From Candidatus Eiseniibacteriota bacterium (GTDB lineage: Bacteria > Eisenbacteria > RBG-16-71-46), in the NCBI GenBank assembly GCA_005893225.1, contig VBOT01000029.1, positions 1 to 59,954 of the forward strand: a DNA stretch of 59,954 bases, given 5' to 3'. The notes below the pieces were generated by a model. It saw only the letters and a program-made list of their open reading frames with translations. It did no database searches and was not told where the DNA came from. This document shows, piece after piece, positions 6,135-48,737 of the stretch (within the stretch, counting starts at the first letter, position 1; each line of letters opens with the position of its first letter). A program made the position numbers and the translations under genes.

Positions 6135-6380
6135 CTACGATCGCTTGACCCTGTTCCGCACAGCCGCGAGCACGGACCCGACTGACGGCAGGACGCCGAG
6201 GAAGCCGAGCGTTCCACTCTGCGCCACGACCTCTCCATCGACCAGCACCTTGAACTCCCCGTAGCGTCCGCTCACCATCTCGACCGCTTCACCCAGCTCC
6301 TTCCGGATTCGCGCCGCCGCCCGGGCGGCGAGGAGGGAAGTGACTCAGTAGGTGCAGTAGCGGATCGTGACTCGGTTCAT
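6135..6380 (-). CDS. SelW/SelT/SelH (Rdx) family selenoprotein, with in-frame TGA = Sec at 6345..6347
   Basis: My own translation is MNRVTIRYCTYU VTSLLAARAAARIRKELGEAVEMVSGRYGEFKVLVDGEVVAQSGTLGFLGVLPSVGSVLAAVRNRVKRS. The CxxU motif sits where Rdx proteins have CxxC/U. AGGAGG lies 7 nt upstream of the ATG. Coding-like sequence continues for 69 codons past the TGA. Confidence 0.75.
6300..6340 (-). promoter_or_regulatory. Candidate bacterial SECIS hairpin for the SelW-like gene
   Basis: The structure starts 4 nt after the UGA. The outer stem is CUUCC/GGAAG and the inner stem is CGCCGCC-[CGGGC]-GGCGGCG, with a G-rich apical loop about 25 nt downstream of the UGA. Confidence 0.5.
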
Positions 6381-6422
6381 GGGATCCTCCTTTCGTGGCC
6401 TGGAACGCCCTCGCGCACCCGT

Positions 6423-10960: not shown

Positions 10961-12340
10961 TCAGGGAGACGCCTGGAGCTTCTTCTTGATCGAGGCGATC
11001 GTGGATTCGGAGCGCTGGCCCTCGGGCATCGCCTCGGCGGCGCTCAGCGCCTCTTCCAGCGTCCGCCTCGCCGACCCCGCGTCGCCGCGGCCCGAGTAGA
11101 TGTCCGCGCGCGTCTGGAGGATCCCGAGACGGCGCGGCCCGTAGGCCTTGGAGAGTGCCCGGTCCGAGGCCGCCAGTGCGTCGTCCCAGCGCTTCATGGC
11201 CTTGAGCGCCACCGCCAGGCGGGCGGGCGGGTTGTAGTCGCCGGGCAGGTCCCGCTCCGAGGCCTCGAGCATCGGGATCGCGCGCTTTGGCTCCCCGAGC
11301 TTGAGGTAGGCGCTCAGGCGATGCGGGTCGAACACCGCGCGCTCCTCGGGAGTTCGGGCCCGGGCGGCCTCGCGCTCGAGAAACGCCGCCCACTCGGAGG
11401 CCACCTGCTTCGCGCCCTGATCGTCCTTGGCGTCCTCGCGGGCGTCGAGCAGGCTTCCGAAGGCCCCGGAGCGGTCGTCCGCCGCCATGGGCGCCGTCGT
11501 GTCCGCGACCACCTCGCGCGCGTCCGCCTCGAGGGCCGCGACCAGCTCCTGGCGCGCCGCGCTCTCCGCCGGCAACTCGAGAGCCGCGTCGAGACCGCTC
11601 GCCGCCACGTTCGCCGCGGACGGCGTGCTTCGAAGCCTGGGATAGGCCTCGCGGGCGAGCTTCGCCGCCTCCTCGCTGGCTTGGGTCCTCTGCAGCGCGA
11701 ACAGCAGCGACTCGACCGTCCGGCCGTAGCGGCCCCACCCCTCGGGTGCGGCCGCCAGCGCCTCCTGATAGGCCTTGGCGGCGCCGGCGTTGTCGCCCTG
11801 CCCGTAGAGAGCGTCGGCGCGGAGCAGCAGGCGATCGGCCTCGGGAGGGCGATCTCCGGAGGATGCTCCCGCGCGGCCCGCGGGCTCCGGCCCGCCTCCG
11901 GCGACGGCGAGGCGGCCGTCGTCCAGCAGTCTCCTGAGCTGGGACGCGGTCGCTCCGCCCACCCAGCGCAACGCCACATTCTGCTCGGCGGGATCGACGA
12001 TCAGGAACGTCGGCAGCGCCTCGATGGGGAACTGCTTACGGAACGGCGCGTTCCTGGACTTCTCGGTGTCGATCTCGAGCCAGACGAACCGCCCGGCCTC
12101 GCTCGCGAGGGACTTGTCGGTGAAGACGAAGGCCCTCATCGAGCGGCAGGTGTGTCACCAGGGCGCCCAGGCCTCGATGAAGAGAGGCACCTTGCGCGCT
12201 CGCGCCTCGGCGAGCGCCCTGCCGTAGTCGTCCTGGATGAACCGGAAGACCCGGGGCGGGGCCGCGACGCCGCCCGAGCGAGCCGGGCTCGCGAGGGCCG
12301 CGAGCGCCAGGGGGAGCAGGAACGCGGGATGCGACTTCAC
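10961..12340 (-). CDS. Secreted thioredoxin-fold (Thioredoxin_7-like) + TPR selenoprotein, with in-frame TGA = Sec at 12155..12157 (UxxC)
   Basis: Track ORFs 12155..12613 and 10961..12139 are in the same frame, separated only by one TGA plus 5 codons. Read through, the sequence is ...KVPLFIEAWAPW-U-HTCRSMRAFVFTD..., i.e. the WCxxC thioredoxin motif with Sec in first position. The GTG start at 12340 gives a signal peptide VKSHPAFLLPLALAALASPARS. TPR-like repeats follow. Confidence 0.7.
12107..12137 (-). promoter_or_regulatory. Candidate SECIS hairpin for the thioredoxin-like selenoprotein
   Basis: The sequence GAGGG-C-CUU-C-GUC [UUCACC] GAC-AAG-U-CCCUC begins 17 nt after the UGA. It is a bulged stem with a 6-nt apical loop. 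Confidence 0.4.
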
Positions 12341-12968: not shown

Positions 12969-13171
12969 GCTCTCGAGGGCGTTTCGTCTGATCTCCGCGC
13001 CCCCGCGGATGGTACGCCTGATGCACCACGCTTTCTCACCCGCCCCGTGCTCGGCAGATCGTTTTCTCCCTGGATCCACCAGCGCAGACGCACCGAGCGC
13101 GAAACTCGATCCGCGACCGCTAGTCGTTCGGATTCGATCGATGCTTGCGAGATCTGGCTTCCACACGCCCG

Positions 13172-16100
13172 ATGCCCGAGCACCGCTCGCCCGAGCGAGG
13201 AGCGGCGACTCCAGACCGGAGGCTCGTGGTGTTCGTCGGCGTGGCTCGCCAGGGGGCGTGGGCGAGCGTGTGCGCTCTGCTCGCGCTGCTCGCACCCCTC
13301 CCCGCGCATGCGGTGACCGTTCCTCCGGGCTTCGTGGTCGAGAACGCGGTTCCCGGATTCGGCTTCAACGCGCCCGTCGCGGTGGCGTTCCTCCCGGATG
13401 GCCGCTGGCTCGTGGCCGAGCGGCGCGGCCGCGTCTTCATCGTCCAGAACGGCGTGAAGAACCCGACCCCCCTGATCAACATCGAGGCCGAGGTGCTGTA
13501 TCGCGAGGATCGCGGGCTGATGTCGCTCGCCGTCGATCCCGACTTCAGGACCAATCGCTCGATCTATCTCCTCTACACCGTGGATCCCGACAGCAACGGC
13601 GTCGACGACAACGACGACGCGTTCGCCCGCCTCACGCGCTACCAGGTGAGCGCCTCCGACCCGGGCACGATCGATCCGGCCTCGCGAACCGTGCTGATCG
13701 GAAAGAGCTGGCACGAGGGGATCCCCTCCGGCTCGCCGTCGCACACCGCGGGGGCGCTGCGCTGGGGGGCCGACCGGAGCCTCCTCATCTCGGCGGGCGA
13801 CGGGGCGCAGTTCAGCCAGATGGATGCCGGGGGTCTCGACCCGGGGCTGTTCGGCCCCGACCGGACCGACCCGGACCAGGACATCGGGGCGTTCCGCGCG
13901 CAGCACCTCGGAAGCCTGGCGGGCAAGATCCTGCGCATCGATCCCCTGACCGGCGAGGGCTACCCGAGCAATCCGTTCTACGACGGCGATCCGCGCTCCA
14001 ATCGCTCGCGAGTGTGGGCGTACGGCCTCCGCAACCCGTTCCGCTTCACGGTCCGGCCGGGCACCGGCAGCACCGACCCGGCCGCGGGCAACCCCGGCTC
14101 ACTCTACGTCTCCGACGTCGGCTGGCGGACCTGGGAGGAATGTAACGTCGCCTCGAGCGGCGGCAAGAACTTCGGCTGGCCGTGCTACGAAGGCCCCGCC
14201 GCGTCGACTGCCTATCAGACCGCCGCGCCGGCTCGTCAGGGATGCGCCTCGATCGGCACCGCCGACAATCCCGGTGTCCTGACCGCGCCGCTCATCACTT
14301 ACCATCACAGCGTCCCATCGCTGAGCCAGCCTCAGGGCATCACCGGAAACGCCGCCACTGGAGGGGTCTTCTACACCGACAGCCTCTATCCGGCCTACTA
14401 CCGACAGCGCTATTTCCTCTGCGACTACGGAGCGAACTGGATCAAGGTCGCGGCCTTGGATGCCGGCGACCATCTGGTCTCACTCGATCCGTTCGCGGCC
14501 GGCGCCGACGGCCCGGTCGACATCGCCACCGACCCGCAGACCGGCGACGTCCTCTACATCTCGATCATGACCGGCGAGCTGCGCCGCATCCGCTACACCG
14601 GACCGACCGGCAACGCGCCGCCGGTGGTGGCGGCGGCGGCCACCCCGACCTCCGGGGCCGCGCCGCTCGGGGTCCAGTTCTCGAGCGCCGGGAGCTTCGA
14701 TCCCGACAACGACCCGCTCTCGTTCGGCTGGAGCTTCGGCGACGGAGAGGGATCGATCGCCGCCAGCCCCTCCCATTCCTTCGCCACTCCCGGCGTCTAT
14801 CACCCGGTGCTCACCGTGACCGACGGGCGCGGCGGGCTGAGCCGCGACACGCTCGAGATCACGGTGCTCCCGAGCGTGGGCTTCCCCTCCACCGGGATCC
14901 TCGACGACTTCAACCGGCCCGGCGCCGCGCTTGGGGCGCCGTGGGTCGGACAGACCTCCGGACTCGCGATCGACCAGAATCAGCTGGTCCAGAGCTCGGG
15001 CGCCTACGTCTCGCCGGTCTGGGGCGGCGGCGTCTTCGGTCCCGACCAGGAGGCCTTCGTCACCCTCGATGCCCTGACGAGTAGTTCGCCCGAGCACGAC
15101 CTGATGCTCAAGATCCAGGGCGAGTCCTGGAACGCCGGGAACATCAAGGTCGACTATGACGCCCGGTACGGCACGGTCTACGTGAAGACCTATACGCCCG
15201 GAGTCGGCTGGCAGAGCTACCCGGGGTCGATCCCGGTCGCGTTCCAGGCGCACGACGTATTCGGGGCTCGGGCGCTCTCGAGCGGCGACGTCGAGATCTA
15301 CCGGAACGGCGTCAAGCTCGGTACCCTCTCGGTGCGCGGCTGGCCTTACGCCTCGCAGGGAGGCAGGGTCGGCCTGCTGCTCGGGAGCGCGCTCACCTCC
15401 CGGCTCGACAACTTCGGAGGGGGAAACGTCGTCTTCCCCTCCAACGCCCCTCCCGAAGCCCGTATCGTCTCGCCGCTCGATCGCGCCTTCTTCGCGGCGG
15501 GCGACACGGTGCGGCTCGTCGGCTCGGCCAGCGACGCCGAGGACCCGGCGTCGAGCCTGCTCTTCCAATGGGAAGTCGACATCCACCACAACAACCACAT
15601 CCATCCCGACAGCTACGTGTTCGACGGGCCGAGCGCCGCCTTCGAGTTCGAGAACCACGACGACGGGACCGGCGTTCACATCGAGATCCGCCTCATCGTG
15701 ACCGACACTGGTGGCCAGAGGGACACCGCGGCCGTCGACGTCTATCCCGAGGTCGACCTCGAGCCCGGCCCGGTCTCGACTCTCGCGGACCCGGTAGGGG
15801 CGGGTAGCGCGACCGAATATCGATTCAAGATCTTCAACCGCGGCCGCATGCCGGCGCCGATCTCGCGCTGGCAGCTCACGGCCGGCGGCGTGACACTGGC
15901 CGCGGGCGACACGCTCGTCGCGGCGCGGGACAGCGTCACGATCGTGCGCAGCCTGGCAGCGCCCCTGGCCCCGGGGGCTTACACCCTGCGCGCCACGGTG
16001 GACGCGCTCGCGCAGGTGATGGAGACCCACGAGGCCAACAACGCCTGGAACGGCACGCTCACCGTCGCCGGCCCGCCGGGCCCACCGGCCGGCCGGTTCC

Positions 16101-16993
16101 CGACCACGCCCGTGCTCGACGACTTCAACCGTCCCAACGCCCCGCTGGGCGCACCCTGGATCGGACTGACCTCGGGCCTCATCCTCGACCAGGACCAGAT
16201 GGTTCAGGGCTCCGGCACCTACGCGTCGCCGGTGTGGGGCGGCTTGGCGTTCGGGCCCGACCAGGAAGCCTTCGTCACGCTGGATGCGATCACTCCGGGA
16301 GCGCCGGAGCACGACCTCATGCTCAAGATCCAGGGCGCGTCGTGGAACGCCGGTCACGTGAAGGCGATCTACGACGACACGTACAAGAAGGTCTACGTGA
16401 TGACCTACACGCCGGGAGTCGGCTGGCAGAGCTATCCCGGCTCGATCCCCGTGACGTTCTCGGCCCATGACGTGTTCGGCGCCCGGGCCCTGTCGACCAG
16501 CGACATCCAGATCTATCGCAACGGCCTCAGGCTCGGGACCCTCTCGGTGCGTGGCTGGCCCTACGCCGCCCTGGGAGGAAGGATCGGCCTCCTGCTCGGC
16601 AATGCCGCGCTGAGCCGTCTCGACAACTTCGGCGGCGGAACCGTGACGCGCCGGCCGGCCGGGGGCGGCACGGCCTCGGTCCCCGAGGTCGTCCCCGATC
16701 CCTTCGGCGGCCCCATTCCAGGGACACTCTCTCTCTCGAGCCCGTTCCCGAACCCGAGCCCGGGCGGCGTGTCGCTGAGGCTCGACCTGCCGCGGGCGGC
16801 GAGAGTCGAGATGAGCGTGTACGACGTCTCCGGCCGCTCGCTGGAGCAGCGGACATCGGACTACCGGCCCGGGCGCTGGACGCTCAAGTGGAGCAGGGCG
16901 AGCGGCGGCGCGCCGGCCCCTCCCGGCCTCTACTTCGCGCGGGTTCGCGCTGGCTCGCGGGTCTTCGAGCGTCGCTTCGTGCTGCTGCAGTGA
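13172..16993 (+). CDS. Large secreted multidomain protein: PQQ/GSDH-type beta-propeller, PKD, two copies of an unassigned jelly-roll-like domain, Ig-like, CARDB-like, T9SS-type C-terminal domain
   Basis: The N-terminus is glucose/sorbosone-dehydrogenase-like (PGFVVENAV...AFLPDGRWLVAERRGRVFIV...GLMSLAVDPDF). A PKD domain follows (FSSAGSFDPDNDPLSFGWSFGDG). The C-terminus is a FlgD-Ig/T9SS sorting domain (FPNPSPGG...VYDVSGR...GLYFARV). The start is uncertain: TTG 13145 or ATG 13172. An RR-containing signal region is present. Confidence 0.85.
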   Translation: MPEHRSPERGAATPDRRLVVFVGVARQGAWASVCALLALLAPLPAHAVTVPPGFVVENAVPGFGFNAPVAVAFLPDGRWLVAERRGRVFIVQNGVKNPTPLINIEAEVLYREDRGLMSLAVDPDFRTNRSIYLLYTVDPDSNGVDDNDDAFARLTRYQVSASDPGTIDPASRTVLIGKSWHEGIPSGSPSHTAGALRWGADRSLLISAGDGAQFSQMDAGGLDPGLFGPDRTDPDQDIGAFRAQHLGSLAGKILRIDPLTGEGYPSNPFYDGDPRSNRSRVWAYGLRNPFRFTVRPGTGSTDPAAGNPGSLYVSDVGWRTWEECNVASSGGKNFGWPCYEGPAASTAYQTAAPARQGCASIGTADNPGVLTAPLITYHHSVPSLSQPQGITGNAATGGVFYTDSLYPAYYRQRYFLCDYGANWIKVAALDAGDHLVSLDPFAAGADGPVDIATDPQTGDVLYISIMTGELRRIRYTGPTGNAPPVVAAAATPTSGAAPLGVQFSSAGSFDPDNDPLSFGWSFGDGEGSIAASPSHSFATPGVYHPVLTVTDGRGGLSRDTLEITVLPSVGFPSTGILDDFNRPGAALGAPWVGQTSGLAIDQNQLVQSSGAYVSPVWGGGVFGPDQEAFVTLDALTSSSPEHDLMLKIQGESWNAGNIKVDYDARYGTVYVKTYTPGVGWQSYPGSIPVAFQAHDVFGARALSSGDVEIYRNGVKLGTLSVRGWPYASQGGRVGLLLGSALTSRLDNFGGGNVVFPSNAPPEARIVSPLDRAFFAAGDTVRLVGSASDAEDPASSLLFQWEVDIHHNNHIHPDSYVFDGPSAAFEFENHDDGTGVHIEIRLIVTDTGGQRDTAAVDVYPEVDLEPGPVSTLADPVGAGSATEYRFKIFNRGRMPAPISRWQLTAGGVTLAAGDTLVAARDSVTIVRSLAAPLAPGAYTLRATVDALAQVMETHEANNAWNGTLTVAGPPGPPAGRFPTTPVLDDFNRPNAPLGAPWIGLTSGLILDQDQMVQGSGTYASPVWGGLAFGPDQEAFVTLDAITPGAPEHDLMLKIQGASWNAGHVKAIYDDTYKKVYVMTYTPGVGWQSYPGSIPVTFSAHDVFGARALSTSDIQIYRNGLRLGTLSVRGWPYAALGGRIGLLLGNAALSRLDNFGGGTVTRRPAGGGTASVPEVVPDPFGGPIPGTLSLSSPFPNPSPGGVSLRLDLPRAARVEMSVYDVSGRSLEQRTSDYRPGRWTLKWSRASGGAPAPPGLYFARVRAGSRVFERRFVLLQ
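14882..15430 (+). repeat. Intragenic domain repeat, copy 1 (about 183 aa)
   Basis: The sequence LDDFNRPGAALGAPWVGQTSGL...FGPDQEAFVTLDA...EHDLMLKIQGESWNAG...TYTPGVGWQSYPGSIPV...LSVRGWPYA...SRLDNFGGG is colinear with copy 2. Confidence 0.8.
16094..16645 (+). repeat. Intragenic domain repeat, copy 2 (about 184 aa)
   Basis: The sequence LDDFNRPNAPLGAPWIGLTSGL...FGPDQEAFVTLDA...EHDLMLKIQGASWNAG...TYTPGVGWQSYPGSIPV...LSVRGWPYA...SRLDNFGGG matches copy 1. By eye roughly three quarters of residues are identical. Confidence 0.8.
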
Positions 16994-16999
16994 CCCCTT

Positions 17000-17023
17000 G
17001 CCTCGGCCAGGGTGAGCCGAGGC
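17000..17023 (+). terminator. Hairpin after the large secreted protein gene
   Basis: The stem gcctcggc-[cagggtga]-gccgaggc is 8 bp and begins 7 nt after the stop. There is no U-tract. Confidence 0.35.
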
Positions 17024-17080
17024 GGGCGAAACCTACGGGATGCCGGCTCCGTAGTCATGCCCACACGCGGAGGATCCGGC

Positions 17081-17929
17081 ATGCGCACGCACATCGCTGG
17101 CCTCGCGGCTGCAGGGCTCCTGTCCTGGGCGGGGCTCGCAGCCGCGGACCAGTGGGACCGGAGCTTCAAGGTCACGGGGAAACCCGCCGTCCGCATCGAG
17201 ACCGACGAGGGGAGCATCCGCGTCTCGGCCTGGGATCGCCCCGAGGTGGCGCTCCACGTCGCGACCCGAGGCTGGCGCATCGCGCCCAGCGGGGTCACGG
17301 TCTCGGCGCGGCAAGCGGGCGAGCGCATCGAGCTCATCGCCCGGACGCCGCGCTTCGAATGGAACCTCTGGGGCGGCCGCTCGCTCGAGATCACCGTCCA
17401 CGTTCCTCGCCAGTCCGATCTCGAGGTGCAAGCCGGGGACGGATCGATCCGGATCGAACCGGTGGCGGGCGAGATTCGGGCGCGCTCCGGCGACGGCGCG
17501 ATCACGGCCTCCGGCCTGCGGGGGAGGATCGCGCTCCACACCGGGGATGGTCCGATCGAGGCGGTGGCCCTGGACGGAGAGCTCACCGCGACCACCGGGG
17601 ACGGCCGCATCCGCGTCGCGGGCCGGTTCGTGGGGCTCGACCTCGGAAGCGGTGACGGATCCCTCGAGGCCGAGGTCACGGCGGGCTCGCGCATGGAACG
17701 GCCGTGGAGCCTCCACACCGGCGACGGGTCGATGGAGCTGCGGCTTCCCGCCGACCTCGCCGCCGATCTCGACGCTCACACCGGCGACGGCGCGATCAAC
17801 CTCGGCATGCCGGTCGTCGTCAGCGGAGCACTCAGCCGCTCGCGGATCCACGCAGCCCTGAACGGAGGCGGGCCGCTCCTGCGCCTCTGGAGCGGTGACG
17901 GCTCGATCCGGATCGACGCGGCGCGGTAG
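17081..17929 (+). CDS. DUF4097-like putative adhesin / beta-helical repeat protein, secreted
   Basis: GGAGGA lies 7 nt upstream of the ATG at 17081. The signal peptide is MRTHIAGLAAAGLLSWAGLAAA, and GDG-S/A/P-I repeats recur (GDGSIRI, GDGAITA, GDGPIEA, GDGRIRV, GDGSLEA, GDGSMEL, GDGAINL). Confidence 0.8.
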   Translation: MRTHIAGLAAAGLLSWAGLAAADQWDRSFKVTGKPAVRIETDEGSIRVSAWDRPEVALHVATRGWRIAPSGVTVSARQAGERIELIARTPRFEWNLWGGRSLEITVHVPRQSDLEVQAGDGSIRIEPVAGEIRARSGDGAITASGLRGRIALHTGDGPIEAVALDGELTATTGDGRIRVAGRFVGLDLGSGDGSLEAEVTAGSRMERPWSLHTGDGSMELRLPADLAADLDAHTGDGAINLGMPVVVSGALSRSRIHAALNGGGPLLRLWSGDGSIRIDAAR

Positions 17930-27510: not shown

Positions 27511-28914
27511 TTAGTGCGCCGCCGGCTCGGGCGGGGCGGCAGCGAGGCTCAACCTCCAGGTGGCGGCCGAGAGCAGCATGAGCACGATCTTGAATTGCTC
27601 GCCGTACAGCGTGGACTCGAACTGGTTGTGGATCGCGAATCCCACGAACGCCGCCCAGACTCCGAGCCCCAGGGCGCGCTCGCGGCTCGAGCGGGCCGCG
27701 CAGCGCGCCCGCCAGGCGGTCACGCCGAGCGTTCCGGCCCACAGGATCGCGAGCAGAGCGCCCGGCAGGCCGAGCTCGGAAAGGAAGCCGAGCTCGAAGT
27801 TGTGCGGCACCGTGTCCACCCCGGTGAGACGGTGGGAGATCACCGAGAAGTTGTTGAGCCCGATCCCGAGCAGCGGATTCCGGCAAAAGGTCTCCCACGC
27901 CAGAGAGTAGAGGTCCATGCGGGCGCCCACCGAGTACTCGACCGCCGAGGCCTGGAGACGGTACAGGAGCACCTGGCGCAGCGGCCCGAACTCGAAGATC
28001 GCGACCCCGATCCCCAGGATCGCGGCCGTGACGGCGGCGCCGGCGCGCCCGGCCCGGCTCCCGGGCGCGAAGCTCACCACCAGGGCCGTCACCAGCGCCA
28101 CGATCGCGCCCTTGGAGGCCGAGAGCACGATGCCGAGGGCATTGAGGGCCAGGACCACGAGCCACAGGGCTCGCCCGCGCCAGCGCGAGGCGTGCCCGAG
28201 GAGCCCGAGCGCCACCGGGAAGCCGATGGCCAGGAGCCCGGCCAGGTAATTGGTGCGGCCCCACGGCAGGTCGACCTGCTTGAGGAGCACCGCCAGCGCC
28301 GGACCGAGCGGCGAGGTGAAGGCGACGCAGGTCATGTGCAACGCCACCAGGCTCCCGGTCACGGCGATCGTCCCGAGGAGCAGCCGCGCGCGAGCCGAGT
28401 CGGTGGCAAAGCACGCCGCCGCCGCCGCCGCCAGCAGCGCGACGCACCACTCCTTGAGCTCGGCGATCCCGGTCAGCGGATCGGGCGAGACGAGCAGGCT
28501 CAAGGCGCTCCAGGCGAGGAGCGGGATCATGGCGATCAGGAACGGCGCGCGCGGCACCTCGACCTTGAACCCGTTCCCGAGGAGCGCCCACGCGAGCCCC
28601 AGGCCGAGCACGAGGTCGGCCCAGAGCAGGCGCCCGCTCTGACCGCCGAGGGAAACCGCCGAGAGCTCGCCGGCCAGGATCGAGAGCGAGAGCAGCGCGA
28701 TCCACGCCGCGAGACTCCCGTGGCGGCGCGCGAAGCGGACGGCGAGAGCGAGGACGGCGGCGGCGAGCCCCGCACCCACCAGGAGCAGAGGCGAAGCCCA
28801 TCGCGTGACGGCGGCGGCGAGGGCCACCGCGCCGGCGGCGATCAGGGCGCCGCGGACCAGCTCGCGGGACCCGCGCTGCGGCGCCGCGAGCGCCGCGCCC
28901 GCCCCGGGCCTCAC
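27511..28914 (-). CDS. O-antigen ligase / Wzy_C-family polytopic membrane protein
   Basis: This is the last 467 codons of the track ORF. It has about 10-12 TM segments and a Wzy_C-like region (LSASKGAIVALV...MDLYSLAWE...GIGLNNF...HNFELGFLSELG). The GTG start overlaps the TGA of the upstream GT4 gene. Confidence 0.8.
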   Translation of the reverse strand: MRPGAGAALAAPQRGSRELVRGALIAAGAVALAAAVTRWASPLLLVGAGLAAAVLALAVRFARRHGSLAAWIALLSLSILAGELSAVSLGGQSGRLLWADLVLGLGLAWALLGNGFKVEVPRAPFLIAMIPLLAWSALSLLVSPDPLTGIAELKEWCVALLAAAAAACFATDSARARLLLGTIAVTGSLVALHMTCVAFTSPLGPALAVLLKQVDLPWGRTNYLAGLLAIGFPVALGLLGHASRWRGRALWLVVLALNALGIVLSASKGAIVALVTALVVSFAPGSRAGRAGAAVTAAILGIGVAIFEFGPLRQVLLYRLQASAVEYSVGARMDLYSLAWETFCRNPLLGIGLNNFSVISHRLTGVDTVPHNFELGFLSELGLPGALLAILWAGTLGVTAWRARCAARSSRERALGLGVWAAFVGFAIHNQFESTLYGEQFKIVLMLLSAATWRLSLAAAPPEPAAH

Positions 28915-30098
28915 GCGGCTGCCTCCGCGGCCTCCGTTTGCTCGGCCCCGAAGGCGCGGTCGTAGACACGCTGGAGCTCGAGGCTGCTCCGCTGGAGCGA
29001 GAAGCGGCGGGCGCGCTCCGGCGCCGCGCGCGCCCAGGTATCGAGCAGGCCCCGATCCTCGGCGAGCCGGATCAGCTCCTCCCCCCAGCGTCCCGGCGCG
29101 TCGGGCGGCAGCAGCAAGCCACACACCCGATCGCCGACCACCTCGGGGATCCCACCCACCCGGGAGGCCAGCACCGGCAGGCCCGCCGCCAGCGCCTCGA
29201 TGATCGCGATCCCGAGGCCCTCGGTCCGCGAGGGCGCGGCGAACAGGTCCATCGCGCTCAGATGCTCGTGGACCCGCGTCTGGTGATGGACGAAGCGGAT
29301 CCGATCCCCCAGGCCGCGGATATGCGCGAGGGATCTCAGGCGCGCGCGCTCCGGCCCGTCTCCCACCACCAGCAGTCTGAGCTGGGGGGCCTGGGGGGCG
29401 GCCCAGGCGACTGCGTCGATCAGGGTGTCCAGGCCCTTGCGCGGATCCAGTCGCGCCACCACGCCGATCACCAAGTCGTGCTCGTCCGTGTAGCCGAGCG
29501 ACTGGCGCATCCGCGCGCGGCCCGCGCGCGCTGCCCACAGCTCGTCCACTGCCACGCCGTTGCGCACCGTGATGGTCCGCTCGGCGAGCTCCGGGAGCGC
29601 TCGCACCAGCGCCCCTCGAACCGCATCGCTCACGGCCACGATGGTGTGGGCGAGCGGCAGGGTGAAGCGGTCGAGCCAGCGCACCGGATCGGCGCGCTTC
29701 TCCTCCCAGTCGGTGAGGTTATGGAGCGAGGTCACGATGCGCGGCACGCGATGGCGGCGCGCCGCCGGCCTCCCGACCACTCCCGAGGCGGCGAGGTGCG
29801 TGTGCACCAGATCGGGGCGCAGTTGCTTGAGCAGCGCATCGAGGCGCGGCCCCACGCGCCAGGCGGGCTCCTTGGGGCCCCTCAGCCGGTGGACCCGGAT
29901 CCCCGCGCTCTCGAACGCGGGGACGAGATCGCCGGCCGGGCCGAGCTCGAGGCTCGCCACCTCGGCCACGAAGCGCCTGCGGTCGAGGGAGGCGGCCTGG
30001 CTCAGGACCACGCGCTGGGCGCCCCCGAGCGCGAGGTCGTTGATCACGAACAGCACGCGCCGCACGGCGTGGGGGCTCTGCCGGCCTATGTCGGACAT
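28911..30098 (-). CDS. Glycosyltransferase family 4
   Basis: The sequence is GT-B fold-like, with N-terminal LFVINDLALGGAQR and a C-terminal EGLGIAIIEALAAGLPVLAS (E-x7-E region). Confidence 0.85.
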   Translation of the reverse strand: MSDIGRQSPHAVRRVLFVINDLALGGAQRVVLSQAASLDRRRFVAEVASLELGPAGDLVPAFESAGIRVHRLRGPKEPAWRVGPRLDALLKQLRPDLVHTHLAASGVVGRPAARRHRVPRIVTSLHNLTDWEEKRADPVRWLDRFTLPLAHTIVAVSDAVRGALVRALPELAERTITVRNGVAVDELWAARAGRARMRQSLGYTDEHDLVIGVVARLDPRKGLDTLIDAVAWAAPQAPQLRLLVVGDGPERARLRSLAHIRGLGDRIRFVHHQTRVHEHLSAMDLFAAPSRTEGLGIAIIEALAAGLPVLASRVGGIPEVVGDRVCGLLLPPDAPGRWGEELIRLAEDRGLLDTWARAAPERARRFSLQRSSLELQRVYDRAFGAEQTEAAEAAA

Positions 30099-30117
30099 CG
30101 CGTGCCGCCGCGCCCGC

Positions 30118-31293
30118 TCAGGCGGCGCGGCGCTCCCCGGCCTCGTCCGGCTCGGCGTGGGCCAGCATCACGCCGGCCACCGACATCGCCCGCGAGGGCA
30201 GCGACCCGGCCACCTTGAGGCGCAAGACCCTGAACGCGCGCCAGGTCGCGATCGAGAAGATGACCAGCATCGCGAGACCGACCCAGGGGACGCGCGAGAG
30301 GATGCAGCCCGCAACCGCGAACGTCGCGGCCGCGCCCCACAGCATCGCGACCGCGCGGCGAGTCGAGAACCCCGCCTGGATCAGCCGATGGTGCACGTGC
30401 ATGCCGTCGGGCTCGAACACCCGGGTCCGGACCTCGCGCACGAACTGGAGCATGGAGCTCGACTGGTGGGCGGCGGCGAGCGTGCGGCGCCGGATCGCGT
30501 CGCAGGTGTCGTAGAGCGGCACCATGAGCAGCAGGGAAGGCACCAGCGGGAAGGCCTCCGGCGAGGAGAGCTGCCCGGCGCGCAGCGTCATCGCCGAGAG
30601 CACGAACCCGACGAACAGGCTGCCCGCGTCCCCCATGAAGATGAGGGCCGGGTTCAGGTTGAACCACAGGAAGCCGAGCAAGGCCCCCGCGAGCGCCGCA
30701 GCCGCGAGCAGCAGCAGGCCGCCCTCGGGGGCGAGCAGCGCGCAGGCGGCCAGCGTCGCCACCAGCGCCACGCCGCACGCCAGGCCGTCGAGGCCGTCGA
30801 TCAGGTTGATGGCGTTGGTGACGAACACCACCCACATCACGGTGAGCGGCAGGCTCAGGAGCCCCACGCGCCAGACCCCGACCCCCGGCACGCCGAGCGA
30901 CTCCACGCGCCATCCGAAGCGGTAGAGCAGGAGCGCCGCGACGAACTGACAGACCAGCTTGGCGGTGGCTCGCAGGCCGTAGACGTCGTCGGCCACGCCC
31001 ACCAGGAGAAGCAGGCCCGAGCCGAGCATCATCCCGATCATGCCGACGTCCTCGCCGTGGAACGGGTCGCTCCAGGATGGATGCCCGTAGGTGGCGAGCG
31101 CCATCGCCACGTAGAAGCCCCAGTAGATGCCGAGACCGCCGAGGCGCGCGGTGGGACGGCGGTGAACGCGGCGGCCTCCGGGGCTGTCGACGGCGCGCAG
31201 TCGGTGGGCGAAGACGCGGACCATTTCGGTGACGCTCAGGGTCGCGATGAGTGCGACCAGAGCGAAAACGATCCACGCGAACGGCACGTCCAT
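30118..31293 (-). CDS. Polyprenyl-phosphate N-acetylhexosamine-1-phosphate transferase (WecA/MraY family)
   Basis: The protein is polytopic and has the motifs GVADDVYGL, NAINLIDGLDGLA and IFMGDAGSLFVGF. Confidence 0.85.
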   Translation of the reverse strand: MDVPFAWIVFALVALIATLSVTEMVRVFAHRLRAVDSPGGRRVHRRPTARLGGLGIYWGFYVAMALATYGHPSWSDPFHGEDVGMIGMMLGSGLLLLVGVADDVYGLRATAKLVCQFVAALLLYRFGWRVESLGVPGVGVWRVGLLSLPLTVMWVVFVTNAINLIDGLDGLACGVALVATLAACALLAPEGGLLLLAAAALAGALLGFLWFNLNPALIFMGDAGSLFVGFVLSAMTLRAGQLSSPEAFPLVPSLLLMVPLYDTCDAIRRRTLAAAHQSSSMLQFVREVRTRVFEPDGMHVHHRLIQAGFSTRRAVAMLWGAAATFAVAGCILSRVPWVGLAMLVIFSIATWRAFRVLRLKVAGSLPSRAMSVAGVMLAHAEPDEAGERRAA

Positions 31294-31401
31294 GGCCTCC
31301 CCGGACCGGCCGAGCGGGCTCGGATGGGATATGGGATGTCAGCCGGGGCGGCGCCGAACCGAGAGGGAACGAGAGGGGCTCCTGGTGGTTTTCATCGGCA
31401 T

Positions 31402-32622
31402 TCAGGCGGCCCTCCTTGAGGTCCAACGCTGGTAAAGATCGTCGAGCCGCTCGAGCATGGTCTCGACGGTCCACCGCTGGGTCACCTCGCCCGGACCCGC
31501 CTCCCCGAGGGCTCGCGCCCGGGCATGCTGGCTGAGCAGGATGTCGAGCCGGACGGTGAAGGTGTCGACGTCGCGCGAGGGCACCACGAACCCGTTGCGC
31601 CCCTCGCGCACCACCTCCCAGGCGCCTTCCACGTCGAAGGTGAGGATCGGCTTGCCCGCCGCCGCCGACTGGACCAGCACGCGCGGCAGACCCTCCCAGA
31701 GCGACGTCAGCACCGAGATGTCCGACGCCGCCAGCACCTTGGGCAGGTCGTGGCGATGCCCGAGGAAGCTCACGATGTCGGCGATGCCGAGCCGGCCGCA
31801 GCGCGCCTCCAGCTCCGCGCGCATCGGCCCGTCTCCGAGGATCAGCACCCGCAGGTCCGGGTGGCGGGGCTTGAGCCGTTCCAGCGCCTCGAACAGGTAG
31901 ACGTGTCCCTTGCGCTCCTCCAGCCGCGCGGCCATCACCACCACCCGGTGGCGAGGCTCGAAGCCGAGCTCGGCCCTGAGGCCCTGGCGCTCCGTCTCGC
32001 TCATCTGACCGGCCTCGAGATACTCCTTGAGCGGCATGCCCGAGTAGATCGTCTCGTACGTCTGCGGCGTGCCCACGCCCGAGCGCAGGTAGATGTTCTT
32101 CACGTCCTCGCCCACCGCCACGAACTGGTCGGTGAAGCGCGCCGCCGTGCGCTCGAGCGCGAGGTAGAACCAGCGCTGCGCGGGCGACAGGTGCTCGTGG
32201 AACGTCACCCCGTGGACGGTGTGGATGATGGTCGGACCGCCGACCAGGGCGGCGGCGACCCGGCCCAGGAACCCGGCCTTGGCGGTGTGGGTGTGCACGA
32301 TCTGGTAGCCGCCACCCCGGATCAGGGCGGCGAGCTTGAACAGGGCCATCAGGTCGTTCCACGGGTCGGGATCGCGCTTGAGCTCGGGCACGACGTGCAC
32401 GCGCACGCCGTCCAGCGGGCCCACCAGGTCGAGCTCCGACCCGCTGCCCACGGCCAGGTCGACGACGTAACGGGTCTTGTCCAGCCCCCTCACCGTGTAC
32501 AGGGTGTTCTCGTCGGCCCCGCCGCGGATCATCCGAGTGATGACGTGCAGCATGCGGATCGGCGGGTAGGTGCCGCGACGCCGCTCGCTCGGGATCTGGG
32601 ACGGAGAGGGAGACAGGCTCAT
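31402..32622 (-). CDS. Glycosyltransferase family 4
   Basis: The sequence is GT-B fold-like, with MLHVITRMIRGGADE and EGLPRVLVQSAAAGKPILTFDV. An alternative start lies at the internal MLHV. Confidence 0.85.
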   Translation of the reverse strand: MSLSPSPSQIPSERRRGTYPPIRMLHVITRMIRGGADENTLYTVRGLDKTRYVVDLAVGSGSELDLVGPLDGVRVHVVPELKRDPDPWNDLMALFKLAALIRGGGYQIVHTHTAKAGFLGRVAAALVGGPTIIHTVHGVTFHEHLSPAQRWFYLALERTAARFTDQFVAVGEDVKNIYLRSGVGTPQTYETIYSGMPLKEYLEAGQMSETERQGLRAELGFEPRHRVVVMAARLEERKGHVYLFEALERLKPRHPDLRVLILGDGPMRAELEARCGRLGIADIVSFLGHRHDLPKVLAASDISVLTSLWEGLPRVLVQSAAAGKPILTFDVEGAWEVVREGRNGFVVPSRDVDTFTVRLDILLSQHARARALGEAGPGEVTQRWTVETMLERLDDLYQRWTSRRAA

Positions 32623-33659
32623 GGCGTGGCGTTGACCTCGCGCAGCGCCCGCCAGTAGTCGTCGGGGCTACCCTGGAGGATATAGGGGCCCTCGAGCTGG
32701 GACGGGTCGATCCACAGGCTGTAGGTCGTGAACACGAAGTATCCATCGGCGCTCGAGGCGATCGACCGCAGCGCTTCGGGAAGCTCGTGGGGAGCGAAGC
32801 GCTTGAGCCATACGCCCCCGATCAGGGGAGCGTCGGGGAGCCCCAGGCCCGCCAGGCGGCCGCGCGCCCCGGGGAGGACCGAGCCCCCCTCCGAGTACGA
32901 TCGCTCGCAGTAGTCGGCGGCCGGAACGCCGCTCCTCGCCAGCGCCCGGGCCAGGGCCCGGTGAACGAAGGAATCCAGATCGAGATCGAAGACCCCGATC
33001 TCGACGTCGGGGTGGCGTTCGTGGAACTCTTCCAGGAGGCCGCGGAGGATGTGGAAGACGCGGGACTCCTCGAACGACAGGAGCCCCTTCAGCCTCCTCG
33101 CGCCGCTCCCCATGTAGCTGAGGCCCGAGGGCCCCGCGTACTCGGTCAGGCACCAGCGGCAGCGGCAGGGTCCGGCATCGTAATGGGTTCGGGTTGCCGA
33201 GTGCAGCTCCAGGTCCACGGCCATCCGCTTCACCGGGACCGCGGCCAGCACCTCCTCGGCGCGATCCAGCAGCGCGCTCCTCCAGAACAGCGAATCGAGC
33301 GGGCAGGCCACGTCGATCTCGTGGTTCCCGTCTCCCCAGGTGTAGCGCCTGAGGCCCGGGAGCGCGCTCAGCCTCGAGTCGGCCTCGAGCGCCCACTGGG
33401 GCACGACCTCGACGCCGATCGAGTCGCCGTGTGCCTTGAGTGATCGGAGCCTCGCCCCGCCGTCGAGCGGCAGCGAGTCGCCGATGGCGTGGACCAGGGC
33501 GCGGTTGAAGCCGGCCCCTCGCAGGAGGTCGAGATGATCGTTCCCCATGTACTCGTAGAAGTAGGCTGCCCGCACCGCGGGAGCGCCGGAGAAGGCCGGG
33601 GCCGGCGCCGCGGTCGCGAGGAGGACCGCGAGCCCGAGGGCCTCGCCGCGGCCGGTCAT
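32619..33659 (-). CDS. Secreted hypothetical protein embedded in the polysaccharide operon (possible TIM-barrel glycan-processing enzyme)
   Basis: The signal peptide is MTGRGEALGLAVLLATAAPAPAFS. A CRCRWC cysteine cluster is present. Both ends overlap their neighbours by ATGA. I recognise no family. Confidence 0.7.
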   Translation of the reverse strand: MTGRGEALGLAVLLATAAPAPAFSGAPAVRAAYFYEYMGNDHLDLLRGAGFNRALVHAIGDSLPLDGGARLRSLKAHGDSIGVEVVPQWALEADSRLSALPGLRRYTWGDGNHEIDVACPLDSLFWRSALLDRAEEVLAAVPVKRMAVDLELHSATRTHYDAGPCRCRWCLTEYAGPSGLSYMGSGARRLKGLLSFEESRVFHILRGLLEEFHERHPDVEIGVFDLDLDSFVHRALARALARSGVPAADYCERSYSEGGSVLPGARGRLAGLGLPDAPLIGGVWLKRFAPHELPEALRSIASSADGYFVFTTYSLWIDPSQLEGPYILQGSPDDYWRALREVNATP

Positions 33660-34564
33660 GCCGCCCATACCGCCTCCAAGCCGGCCGCGTAGATGCCGGC
33701 GCTGGCACGGCCAGTGCGGCCCGCCATGCTGGCGCACCACTTGAGCGATAGGCTCAGGAGAAGGATCAGCTTCGCGCACCACGCGGCGGGGGCCCCATGG
33801 TGCTTTCGGAAATAGTAGACGCGCGACCGAAGGTTGTGGAGATAGGTCGCGCCGGGAACCTGGCGGGAGGACCGCTGGCCGTGGTGCACGAACCTGGCCT
33901 CGGGGACGTAGCGCACGCCGAGCCCCAGGCGCGCCGCGCGCTGGCACCAGTCCACCTCCTCCATGTACATGAAGATGCTCTCGTCCAGGCCGCCGACCCG
34001 CTCGAAAGCGGGGCGTCGGATCAGCAGCGCGGCGCCCGAGGCCCAGTCCACTCGGTCCAGTGAATCCATCGCCCGGCCGCCGTACTTGTAGCTCCCGAAC
34101 CAGCGCGACTCGGGAAGCGCCTGGGCCATTCCCAGGTGGTCGCAGAGCAGGGCCCAGAGGTCCGGAAACCGCCCGCACGACCGCGCCACCAGGCCCTCGC
34201 CGTCGATCAGCATCGGGGCGGCCGCGGCCAGGTCCGGCTCCTCCTCGAGCGCCGCGATCAGACGCTCGAGCGCGCCCGGGCGGATCTCGCAGTCGGGATT
34301 GAGGACCAGCAGGTGGTCTCCGCGCGCGCGCGCGAGGCCCTGGTTCACACCGCGCGTGAAGCCGCGGTTCTCGGAATTGGCGATCACCTCCACCTCGGGA
34401 TGAGCCTGCTCGAGCCACTCCACCGTGCCGTCGCCCGAGTCGTTGTCCACCACGATCACCTCGAGGGCCAGAGTCTTGGCGCAGCGCTCCAGCGACTCGA
34501 CGCAGGCGGACAGGGAATCGAGCGAGCGAAAGCTCACGATCACCGCCGTGACCCGGGGTCTCAT
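33656..34564 (-). CDS. Glycosyltransferase family 2
   Basis: The sequence has VTAVIVSFRS, VVDNDSGDGT and NPDCEI (DxD-type) motifs, plus MYMEEVDWCQRA. Confidence 0.85.
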   Translation of the reverse strand: MRPRVTAVIVSFRSLDSLSACVESLERCAKTLALEVIVVDNDSGDGTVEWLEQAHPEVEVIANSENRGFTRGVNQGLARARGDHLLVLNPDCEIRPGALERLIAALEEEPDLAAAAPMLIDGEGLVARSCGRFPDLWALLCDHLGMAQALPESRWFGSYKYGGRAMDSLDRVDWASGAALLIRRPAFERVGGLDESIFMYMEEVDWCQRAARLGLGVRYVPEARFVHHGQRSSRQVPGATYLHNLRSRVYYFRKHHGAPAAWCAKLILLLSLSLKWCASMAGRTGRASAGIYAAGLEAVWAA

Positions 34565-47853: not shown

Positions 47854-48737
47854 GGTTTCCGCCCCGCGAACCGGAACGCCCGGGTGAACCCCGCTGCGAC
47901 CGCGCGCTCCTTGAGGCGCTGGGCCGCCACGCGATCGAGGCACGAGGAGGACCTCACCTTGAAGAGCCCCTTCTCACGCTCGATCGCCATCGGCGCGAGA
48001 AGCTGGGACTCGGCCGCCTCGCGCAGGCGCTCGGCCTTCTCGCGCTGGTTGGGGGCGCCGACCTGGACGCGCCAGCAGGTGTCGCTCGCGGCACTCCCTC
48101 GGGGTGATCCGGGCGCCGGGCGCGCGGGCGGGCTCGAGCCGGCGGGCGGCGTTGCAGTGGGAGGCGGGCGTGAGCCCTCGGAGACGCCGCTCGGGGGAGA
48201 CGGCTGGGAGGCCGCGGTGTCGGCGGGCGGCGTTGCAGTGGGAGGCGGCCGCTGCCCGAGCGGCAGCGTGGGCGAGGGAACGGGAACCTCGGGTCCCGAG
48301 GTGTCGGCCGGGGCCTCAAGCGCCACCCCCGTGCTGTCGGCGACGCTCGGGCTCGCCGGCGAGCCCGTGGTGTCCGCGGGTGCCAGAGCAGGCGACACGC
48401 CGGAATCGGGCCGCGCCTCAGCCCGCCCTTGCGGAGGGGTGCCACCACTGCTCGCCAGGGCCCGCGGTTCGGGCGGCGGCACGCGCTGGGCCGCCGGGAT
48501 GGGCTCGGGAATCGTCCCCAGCACCTCGAGCGCTTCCCTGGAGGGCGTGCTGTCCACGACCGCGGCTGGAGGAGCGCCCGGCCGGGCCGCGGCTCCCGCG
48601 GATGAGCCGGGATGGGTGCCCGAGGCTGGGCCGGCGGGAACGGCACCCGCCGATCGGGGCGGCTGCAGAGGCGCGGCGCAGCCGAGGAGCGGCGTCACGG
48701 CCGCCATGATCCAGAAGAGGAGTCGAGCCCGGCTCAC
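47850..48737 (-). CDS. SPOR-domain lipoprotein with Pro/Ala/Ser-rich linker
   Basis: The lipobox is LLFWIMAAVTPLLGC. The linker is low-complexity and includes a duplicated 27-codon unit. The C-terminal SPOR domain is WRVQVGAPNQREKAERL...GLFKVR...FRF. Confidence 0.75.
   Translation of the reverse strand: MSRARLLFWIMAAVTPLLGCAAPLQPPRSAGAVPAGPASGTHPGSSAGAAARPGAPPAAVVDSTPSREALEVLGTIPEPIPAAQRVPPPEPRALASSGGTPPQGRAEARPDSGVSPALAPADTTGSPASPSVADSTGVALEAPADTSGPEVPVPSPTLPLGQRPPPTATPPADTAASQPSPPSGVSEGSRPPPTATPPAGSSPPARPAPGSPRGSAASDTCWRVQVGAPNQREKAERLREAAESQLLAPMAIEREKGLFKVRSSSCLDRVAAQRLKERAVAAGFTRAFRFAGRKP

Follow-up and report, generated by a model that had tools for sequence, protein, structure and literature searches.

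The locus considered here raises the question of whether an in-frame TGA ends a short gene or is decoded as selenocysteine (Sec). It is located on the minus strand of a contig from Candidatus Eiseniibacteriota, and the window, i.e., the whole stretch of DNA that was analyzed, comprises 59,954 nucleotides with a GC content of 71.5%. At 6380-6135, an 81-codon frame is flanked by genes for an Abhydrolase_11 hydrolase and a GTP-dependent PEPCK on the same strand, and its sole break is a TGA at codon 12. A first-pass annotation had described both the location between an alpha/beta hydrolase gene and pckG and a frame opening with MNRVTIRYCTYU that only this TGA interrupts, and both descriptions were borne out. 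With a probability of about 0.9, judged from sequence comparison, the frame encodes an 81-residue cytosolic SelW-like (Rdx) selenoprotein with a Cys9-x-x-Sec12 redox centre. The features of the locus are as follows.

6135..6380, minus strand: coding sequence of the probable Rdx-family selenoprotein, 81 residues including Sec12, plus the TAG stop (translation, Pfam, conservation in 83 loci, codon periodicity)
6386..6391, minus strand: Shine-Dalgarno motif AGGAGG, 5 nt (ATCCC) before the ATG (sequence)
6378-6380, minus strand: start codon ATG (sequence)
6354..6356, minus strand: TGC for Cys9, the first CxxU residue (invariant Cys, aligned with the first Cys of the CxxC in 2fa8 and 2ojl)
6345..6347, minus strand: in-frame TGA, codon 12, the second CxxU residue (TGA in 83/83 loci, Cys in solved homologues)
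6312..6330, minus strand: predicted bacterial SECIS hairpin (folding, RNAalifold, synonymous-site entropy, bSECIS criteria)
6135..6278, minus strand: 47-aa fragment of the public gene calls (P0004), which replaces the full gene in annotation
6135-6137, minus strand: stop codon TAG (sequence)

Around the start, the minus strand reads AAAGGAGGATCCC-ATG. The AGGAGG and the ATG had been recognized before, and only the spacer of 7 nt assigned to them needed to be corrected to 5 nt. An SD-like motif was also found upstream of the gene in 53 of 72 distinct relatives. The frame translates as MNRVTIRYCTY*VTSLL...GEFKVLVDGEVV...GVLPS..., and the read-through product is MNRVTIRYCTYUVTSLLAARAAARIRKELGEAVEMVSGRYGEFKVLVDGEVVAQSGTLGFLGVLPSVGSVLAAVRNRVKRS. 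The gap between the neighboring genes, which standard gene callers had been expected to leave empty, is occupied in the public calls by a C-terminal fragment (6278-6135). In every public contig read from this population, it is called as a 47-aa product without annotation or Pfam hit; exact look-ups of two window proteins led to metagenome contigs of at most 33 kb. The subfamily obtained 422 database matches, mostly fragments of 56-72 aa that start after the TGA, and the starts chosen by gene callers vary from locus to locus. Some Cys forms of the subfamily are already labelled “predicted Rdx family selenoprotein” in IMG.

The affiliation of the protein was determined with U read as C. The Pfam model Rdx (PF10262) matched residues 3-52 with 29.8 bits over a cut-off of 22.6 (E=7e-7), and it also matched eight of nine aligned members of the subfamily. 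Two NCBIfam models remained below their cut-offs for the window protein, with 14.5 vs 34.2 for TIGR02174 and 35.5 vs 88 for NF041051, a Campylobacter equivalog. Hence, the protein belongs to a divergent Rdx branch that is missed by automatic naming, although the superfamily is still detected. The HMM check proposed with the first-pass annotation succeeded with PF10262, while the score of TIGR02174 stayed below its cut-off. When a profile of the subfamily was compared with all PDB sequences, the SelW-related Atu0228 of Agrobacterium (2fa8) was found first and 2ojl second, and the motif RIAIRYCxxC aligned column for column.

An alignment of 33 relatives was used to model P0002, a natural Cys homologue with 60% identity to the window protein. 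The model reached a pLDDT of 91.8 and a pTM of 0.83, with strands at residues 4-8, 33-37, 43-47, and 50-54 and helices at 14-29 and 67-79. In a Foldseek search of the PDB with this model, all of the top 21 hits were bacterial SelW-related structures (2ojl, 2oka, 2fa8, 2obk, 3dex, and 2p0g) with TM scores of 0.72-0.83, followed by MIEN1 and mouse SelW, and ordinary thioredoxins appeared only later. By the positions of the P0002 model, C9-T-Y-U12 sits after the strand of residues 4-8 and before the helix of residues 14-29. Compared with the published definition of the Rdx/SelW fold (PMC3527542), the model of this homologue displays the Rdx fold. The Pfam score, the profile match to 2fa8 and 2ojl, and the fold search thus all agree with the Rdx/SelW assignment made at the outset.

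Orthologous loci were collected from two sources. Each GTDB species was represented by one genome in the first scan, which returned four loci, belonging to a Candidatus Solibacter, a Gemmatimonadales metagenome-assembled genome (MAG), and two Acidobacteriota MAGs, and a scan of metagenome contigs returned 262 loci, of which 80 were kept. Orthologues with TGA are present on the 2.47-Mb Gemmatimonadales contig CAVQSR010000001.1 and the 1.8-Mb Acidobacteriota contig CAVUTP010000014.1. The related loci originate from Acidobacteriota and Gemmatimonadales genomes and from soil metagenomes. The motif could be placed in the window and in 82 related loci, and the codon after Y-C-x-Y was TGA in 83 of 83. 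An ATG occurs exactly 11 codons before the TGA in 71 of 72 distinct sequences, and codon 9 encodes Cys in all 69 distinct sequences compared at this position (TGC in 59, TGT in 10). A conserved start after the TGA was not found in these loci, as codon 13 is GTA, ATC, GTG, GTC, ATT, GTT, or CTG.

Conservation is codon-periodic before and after the TGA. The first, second, and third codon positions have entropies of 0.59, 0.33, and 1.30 bits in codons 2-11 and of 0.63, 0.40, and 1.51 bits in codons 24-75, respectively, while no conservation is seen in the 30 nt before the start, with 1.79 bits per site over the 72 distinct sequences. This periodicity, as seen in the comparison of aligned loci, demonstrates selection at the protein level on both sides of the UGA. 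Conservation of the frame in orthologous loci, which had been named as a check, was found in other taxa as well.

Codons other than TGA were rare at this position. TGC occurs in L093 as well as in L094 and L095, the latter two from two independent samples, and single contigs carry TGG or TTA. The loci are listed below.

L093, 116-358: TGC (Cys) at the Sec codon
L094, 313-555: TGC (Cys) at the Sec codon
L095, 343-585: TGC (Cys) at the Sec codon
L096, 529-771: TGG (Trp) at the Sec codon
L097, 386-628: TTA (Leu) at the Sec codon

The TGC variants form one unbroken ORF of 80 aa. Along with the alignment to the CxxC of 2fa8 and 2ojl, they answer the proposed check for Cys homologues across the TGA. 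Their rarity agrees with the literature, in which Cys homologues of SelW-like proteins are described as very scarce among organisms that use Sec (PMC1794560). All five variants differ from TGA by one substitution and retain the stem past this codon, so they are either “fossil SECIS” cases or single-read errors. In L094 and L095, the loop has become CAUGU and the G at loop position 2 is lost.

The downstream stem starts 14 nt after the UGA and consists of CGCCGCC-CGGGC-GGCGGCG, a 7-bp stem with the 5-nt loop CGGGC (6330-6312). It is located inside codons 17-23, which code for helix alpha1. Folded alone, the hairpin has -13.6 kcal/mol, and it stands apart in the centroid structure. The distance from the UGA to its apical loop is 21 nt. 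According to the bSECIS model, the loop should comprise 3-9 nt and the upper stem 4-16 bp, a G, in most cases with G or U after it, should occupy loop position 1 or 2, the UGA should be 16-37 nt from the loop, and the minimum free energy should be -7.5 kcal/mol or lower (PMC13188914). The hairpin lies within this model on all four counts. A GC-rich stem-loop with a G-rich loop and a spacing compatible with bacterial SECIS elements had been proposed earlier, and this proposal was strengthened by the bSECIS comparison and by the consensus structure and synonymous-site constraint given below.

The 81-nt region as a whole folds no better than shuffled sequence (z=+0.32). This is expected at 71.5% GC, where a test of whole-region folding is useless, and comparative and synonymous-site tests were therefore used instead. 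RNAalifold of 62 distinct sequences returned the hairpin at 6330-6312 as the sole consensus structure. Standard pairs were present in 96.8% of stem cells, compared to 29-60% in most shifted registers, while the GC repeat of the stem allows 92% of cells to pair in register -3 as well. The predicted fold was obtained in 66 of 72 sequences, at -10.5 kcal/mol on average. Most loops are CGUGU (32), CGGGU (31), or CGGGC (4), position 2 is G in 72/72, and the 17-nt core GCCGUCCGKGUGGCGGC is nearly invariant across phyla. The closing pair of the stem is C-G in 40, U-A in six, U-G in five, and G-C in one case, the fifth pair alternates between U-G and C-G, and double changes in the stem are confined to the closing pair. 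The stem varies so little that covariation is thin, which makes the synonymous sites the stronger test.

At the four-fold degenerate codons 18-23, the entropies of the third position are 0, 0.42, 1.16, 0, 0.11, and 1.15 bits, respectively, with a mean of 0.47 bits. The mean over the 43 other four-fold codons of the gene is 1.65 bits (Mann-Whitney p=5.7e-5). Of the two looser codons, one falls on the loop base that varies and the other on the closing pair that covaries, and the essentially fixed codons of the hairpin are GCC in 69/69, GUG in 64/64, and GCG in 68/69. Outside the hairpin, the conserved residues G41, V45, L46, V47, and P65 have third positions at 1.6-1.9 bits. Taken from aligned sequences, this constraint at synonymous sites demonstrates that the hairpin 14 nt past the UGA is under selection at the RNA level. 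Besides the element itself, the window contains no further exact copies of the core. A copy with two mismatches at 48248-48264 was rejected as it has no upstream TGA and lies inside a coding region rich in Pro, Ala, and Ser.

The use of TGA elsewhere was considered next to this element. TGA is the commonest stop in the window and ends 20 of the 31 confident ORFs, including both neighbors of the SelW-like gene. In the orthologues of Solibacter (L001) and one of the Acidobacteriota (L003), the SelW-like gene itself stops with TGA. As TGA is ordinarily a stop, read-through would be local and signal-dependent, with the code unchanged. A tblastn search with SelA, SelB, and SelD of E. coli returned no match at 1e-3 in the 60-kb window and the flanks of the related loci. 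In the window, ARAGORN reported tRNA-Gly only and Rfam nothing relevant, and no tRNA-Sec was found there or in the flanks of the related loci. For a 60-kb piece of a genome, these negative results are uninformative.

A further gene of the window is likewise broken by a single TGA:

10961-12340, minus strand: gene with signal peptide, Thioredoxin_7, and TPR, one frame broken only by the TGA at 12155-12157

This TGA (12157-12155) falls inside the Thioredoxin_7 domain in the motif WAPW-U-HTC. The best 120 homologues comprise 34 full-length proteins, all with WCH[TS]C, and 86 truncated ones. The four truncated examples listed start with MRA[FY]VFTD, five codons past the position of the TGA. The nearest named relatives of the protein are encoded in MAGs of Candidatus Eisenbacteria, Acidobacteriota, and Thermoanaerobaculia with 59-68% identity. 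The second case at 12155 that the first-pass annotation had listed is thus well supported, with Cys in every full-length protein among these 120. A crude scan of the window for other genes with an in-frame TGA returned mostly antisense-frame artefacts along with this case. On the plus strand, long same-frame segments with high GC3 at 13124-16993 and 16994-17929 are split by a single TGA (16991-16993); a stricter scan for in-frame TGA did not flag them, and they are thus probably merely adjacent genes.

Four other explanations were weighed against selenocysteine insertion. It is very unlikely that the TGA is an ordinary stop, with a shorter downstream ORF (47-68 aa) as the real gene and the 11 upstream codons as a leader peptide or non-coding DNA. 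Such a stop would agree with the public annotation, which has just the 47-aa fragment, with the more than 400 database entries of 56-72 aa that begin past the TGA, and with the frequent use of TGA as a stop in the window. However, the start after the TGA is not conserved, as codon 13 is variable and called starts differ by locus, while the 11 upstream codons are always in frame, codon-periodic, and headed by ATG in 71 of 72 sequences. They also provide strand beta1 and the redox Cys, both needed for the Rdx fold and the Pfam match at residues 3-52, and the unbroken 80-aa ORF of the TGC variants spans them as well. The chance that a Cys-type Rdx gene is decaying into a pseudogene here is close to nil. 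Although TGC changes to TGA by one mutation and variants with TGC, TGG, and TTA exist, decay would require that 83 of 83 loci from at least two phyla had all fixed this one change. Purifying selection acts on both sides of the TGA and the hairpin is constant at synonymous sites, and pseudogenes show neither.

Insertion of a standard amino acid at the UGA without Sec, be it through a genome-wide reassignment to Trp or Gly (codes 4 and 25) or through near-cognate read-through, is given a slightly smaller chance than an ordinary stop. TGG at codon 12 of one metagenomic relative (L096) points in this direction, as does the fact that Sec machinery was not seen in the 60-kb window, but TGA stops 20 of 31 window ORFs, both neighbors, and the L001 and L003 orthologues. 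Furthermore, the codon occupies the second redox position of the CxxC/CxxU motif, which is functional only as Cys or Sec, and the hairpin fits the SECIS model of the SelB type. A GC content of 71.5% is also unlike that of the known lineages with reassigned TGA. It is also exceedingly improbable that the conservation of the hairpin reflects nothing but protein constraint on helix alpha1 (A-V-R-V-A-A), without an RNA element. The hairpin does lie within a conserved helix and its covariation is limited to the closing pair. Yet four-fold third positions are essentially fixed in the stem, while those of the equally conserved G41, V45, L46, V47, and P65 vary at 1.6-1.9 bits, and the closing pair covaries between C-G, U-A, and G-C. 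The selenoprotein interpretation of the first-pass annotation was supported in all respects tested, and decoding of codon 12 as Sec is the reading followed here.

Under selenocysteine insertion, a complex of SelB, GTP, and Sec-tRNA(Sec) would bind the hairpin at 6330-6312 as the ribosome reaches codon 12, and selenocysteine would be delivered at the UGA in place of termination by release factor 2. In the minimal thioredoxin-like fold of the product, strand beta1 is predicted to precede the Cys9-x-x-Sec12 centre and helix alpha1 to follow it. The product may act as a thiol/selenol oxidoreductase that alternates between the selenolate/thiol state and a Cys9-Sec12 selenenylsulfide.

Gene neighborhood was considered as a clue to function and discarded. 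Synteny with the hydrolase, PEPCK, and amidohydrolase genes is limited to three near-identical or close loci (L005-L007), and clustering of the flanking ORFs of 84 loci returned no neighbor shared by more than seven loci, apart from an antisense artefact. As no neighbor recurs, the SelW-like gene stands alone and would be a stand-alone unit. Three observations were made in the surroundings of this and related loci. At 54-131 on the plus strand, the Rfam model RF00029 (group II catalytic intron) scored 42.2 bits with a gathering score of 40, which suggests that the window opens with a group II intron. In L089 (3317-4948), which belongs to the same population, pckG is mostly replaced by two opposite-strand ORFs of 286 and 84 aa without Pfam hits, and a PEPCK_GTP remnant of 94 aa is left beside the SelW-like gene; this may be an insertion or rearrangement variant. 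On the 40-kb contig Ga0136614_10000044, the SelW-like locus occurs twice in inverted orientation (L081 and L082; 6424-12657 and, reversed, 27522-33755) with identical proteins, which represents either a large inverted duplication or an assembly artefact.

SelW-like CxxU proteins were already described in the earliest selenoproteome surveys of prokaryotes (2004-2005), and the window gene therefore adds a member to a long-known family rather than a new kind of protein and is ordinary biology in this respect. Kryukov and Gladyshev reportedly gave an early account of the bacterial members in 2004. The family is established, and it was the most abundant selenoprotein family in Sargasso Sea data (PMC1088965). 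Its described members (PF10262; PMC1088965, PMC1794560) resemble the window gene in a length of about 80 aa, a CxxU right after strand beta1, a SECIS hairpin in the coding sequence directly past the UGA, few Cys homologues among Sec users, routine mis-annotation, and a presumed redox role. In contrast, the window branch is divergent, falls below the threshold of both NCBIfam models, matches Pfam in residues 3-52 only, and has a C-terminal half with motifs of its own (YGEFKVLVDG and LGVLPS). While the original sources were marine, deltaproteobacterial, and clostridial, the branch described here occurs in soil Acidobacteriota, Gemmatimonadales, and related uncultured lineages.

The solved Cys-type Rdx proteins (2fa8, 2ojl, 2oka, 2obk, 3dex, and 2p0g) share the fold of the P0002 model with the TM scores of 0.72-0.83 given above, and their N-terminal R-I-A-I-R-Y-C-x-x-C aligns residue for residue. 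They differ by CxxC in place of CxxU, an identity of 20-33%, and deposited chains of about 100-108 residues. Mammalian SelW (2npb) and MIEN1/Rdx12 (2ljk) have the superfamily and fold in common with the window protein, with CxxU or CxxC in the same loop (PMC3527542), but match the P0002 model less closely with TM scores of 0.61-0.67. Eukaryotic SECIS elements are located in the 3' UTR, contain a kink-turn, and are read by SBP2, whereas the element predicted here is a hairpin of the bacterial SelB type in the coding sequence. With the SECIS elements of E. coli fdhF and fdnG and the bSECIS model, it shares the position directly past the UGA, a small loop in which G precedes G or U, and a distance within 16-37 nt. 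Unlike that of fdhF, to which it has no sequence similarity, it has no bulged U and forms a short, perfect GC stem as the predicted target of SelB.

The find leaves knowledge of Sec decoding and of Rdx protein function unchanged. What is mildly new is a divergent branch below the NCBIfam cut-offs, common in soil Acidobacteriota and Gemmatimonadales, with its near-invariant 17-nt SECIS core across phyla. It is conceivable, at somewhat less than even odds, that the branch constitutes an undescribed, almost obligately Sec-containing Rdx subfamily that is restricted to soil Acidobacteriota, Gemmatimonadales, and uncultured lineages allied to them. If so, the nearly invariant core would point to a recent horizontal transfer of gene and SECIS together, or to unusually strict rules by which SelB recognizes the SECIS in these lineages. 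For annotation, the 47-aa “hypothetical protein” should be corrected to an 81-aa selenoprotein, and several hundred related entries carry the same error. The 17-nt core offers a simple DNA signature with which such genes may be found and repaired. The find also fits a wide distribution of SelW-like proteins in soil Acidobacteriota and Gemmatimonadales, beyond marine and anaerobic bacteria, and, with codon 12 read as Sec, the SelW-like gene and the gene at 12155 mark an uncultured soil bacterium with 71.5% GC as a user of selenocysteine.
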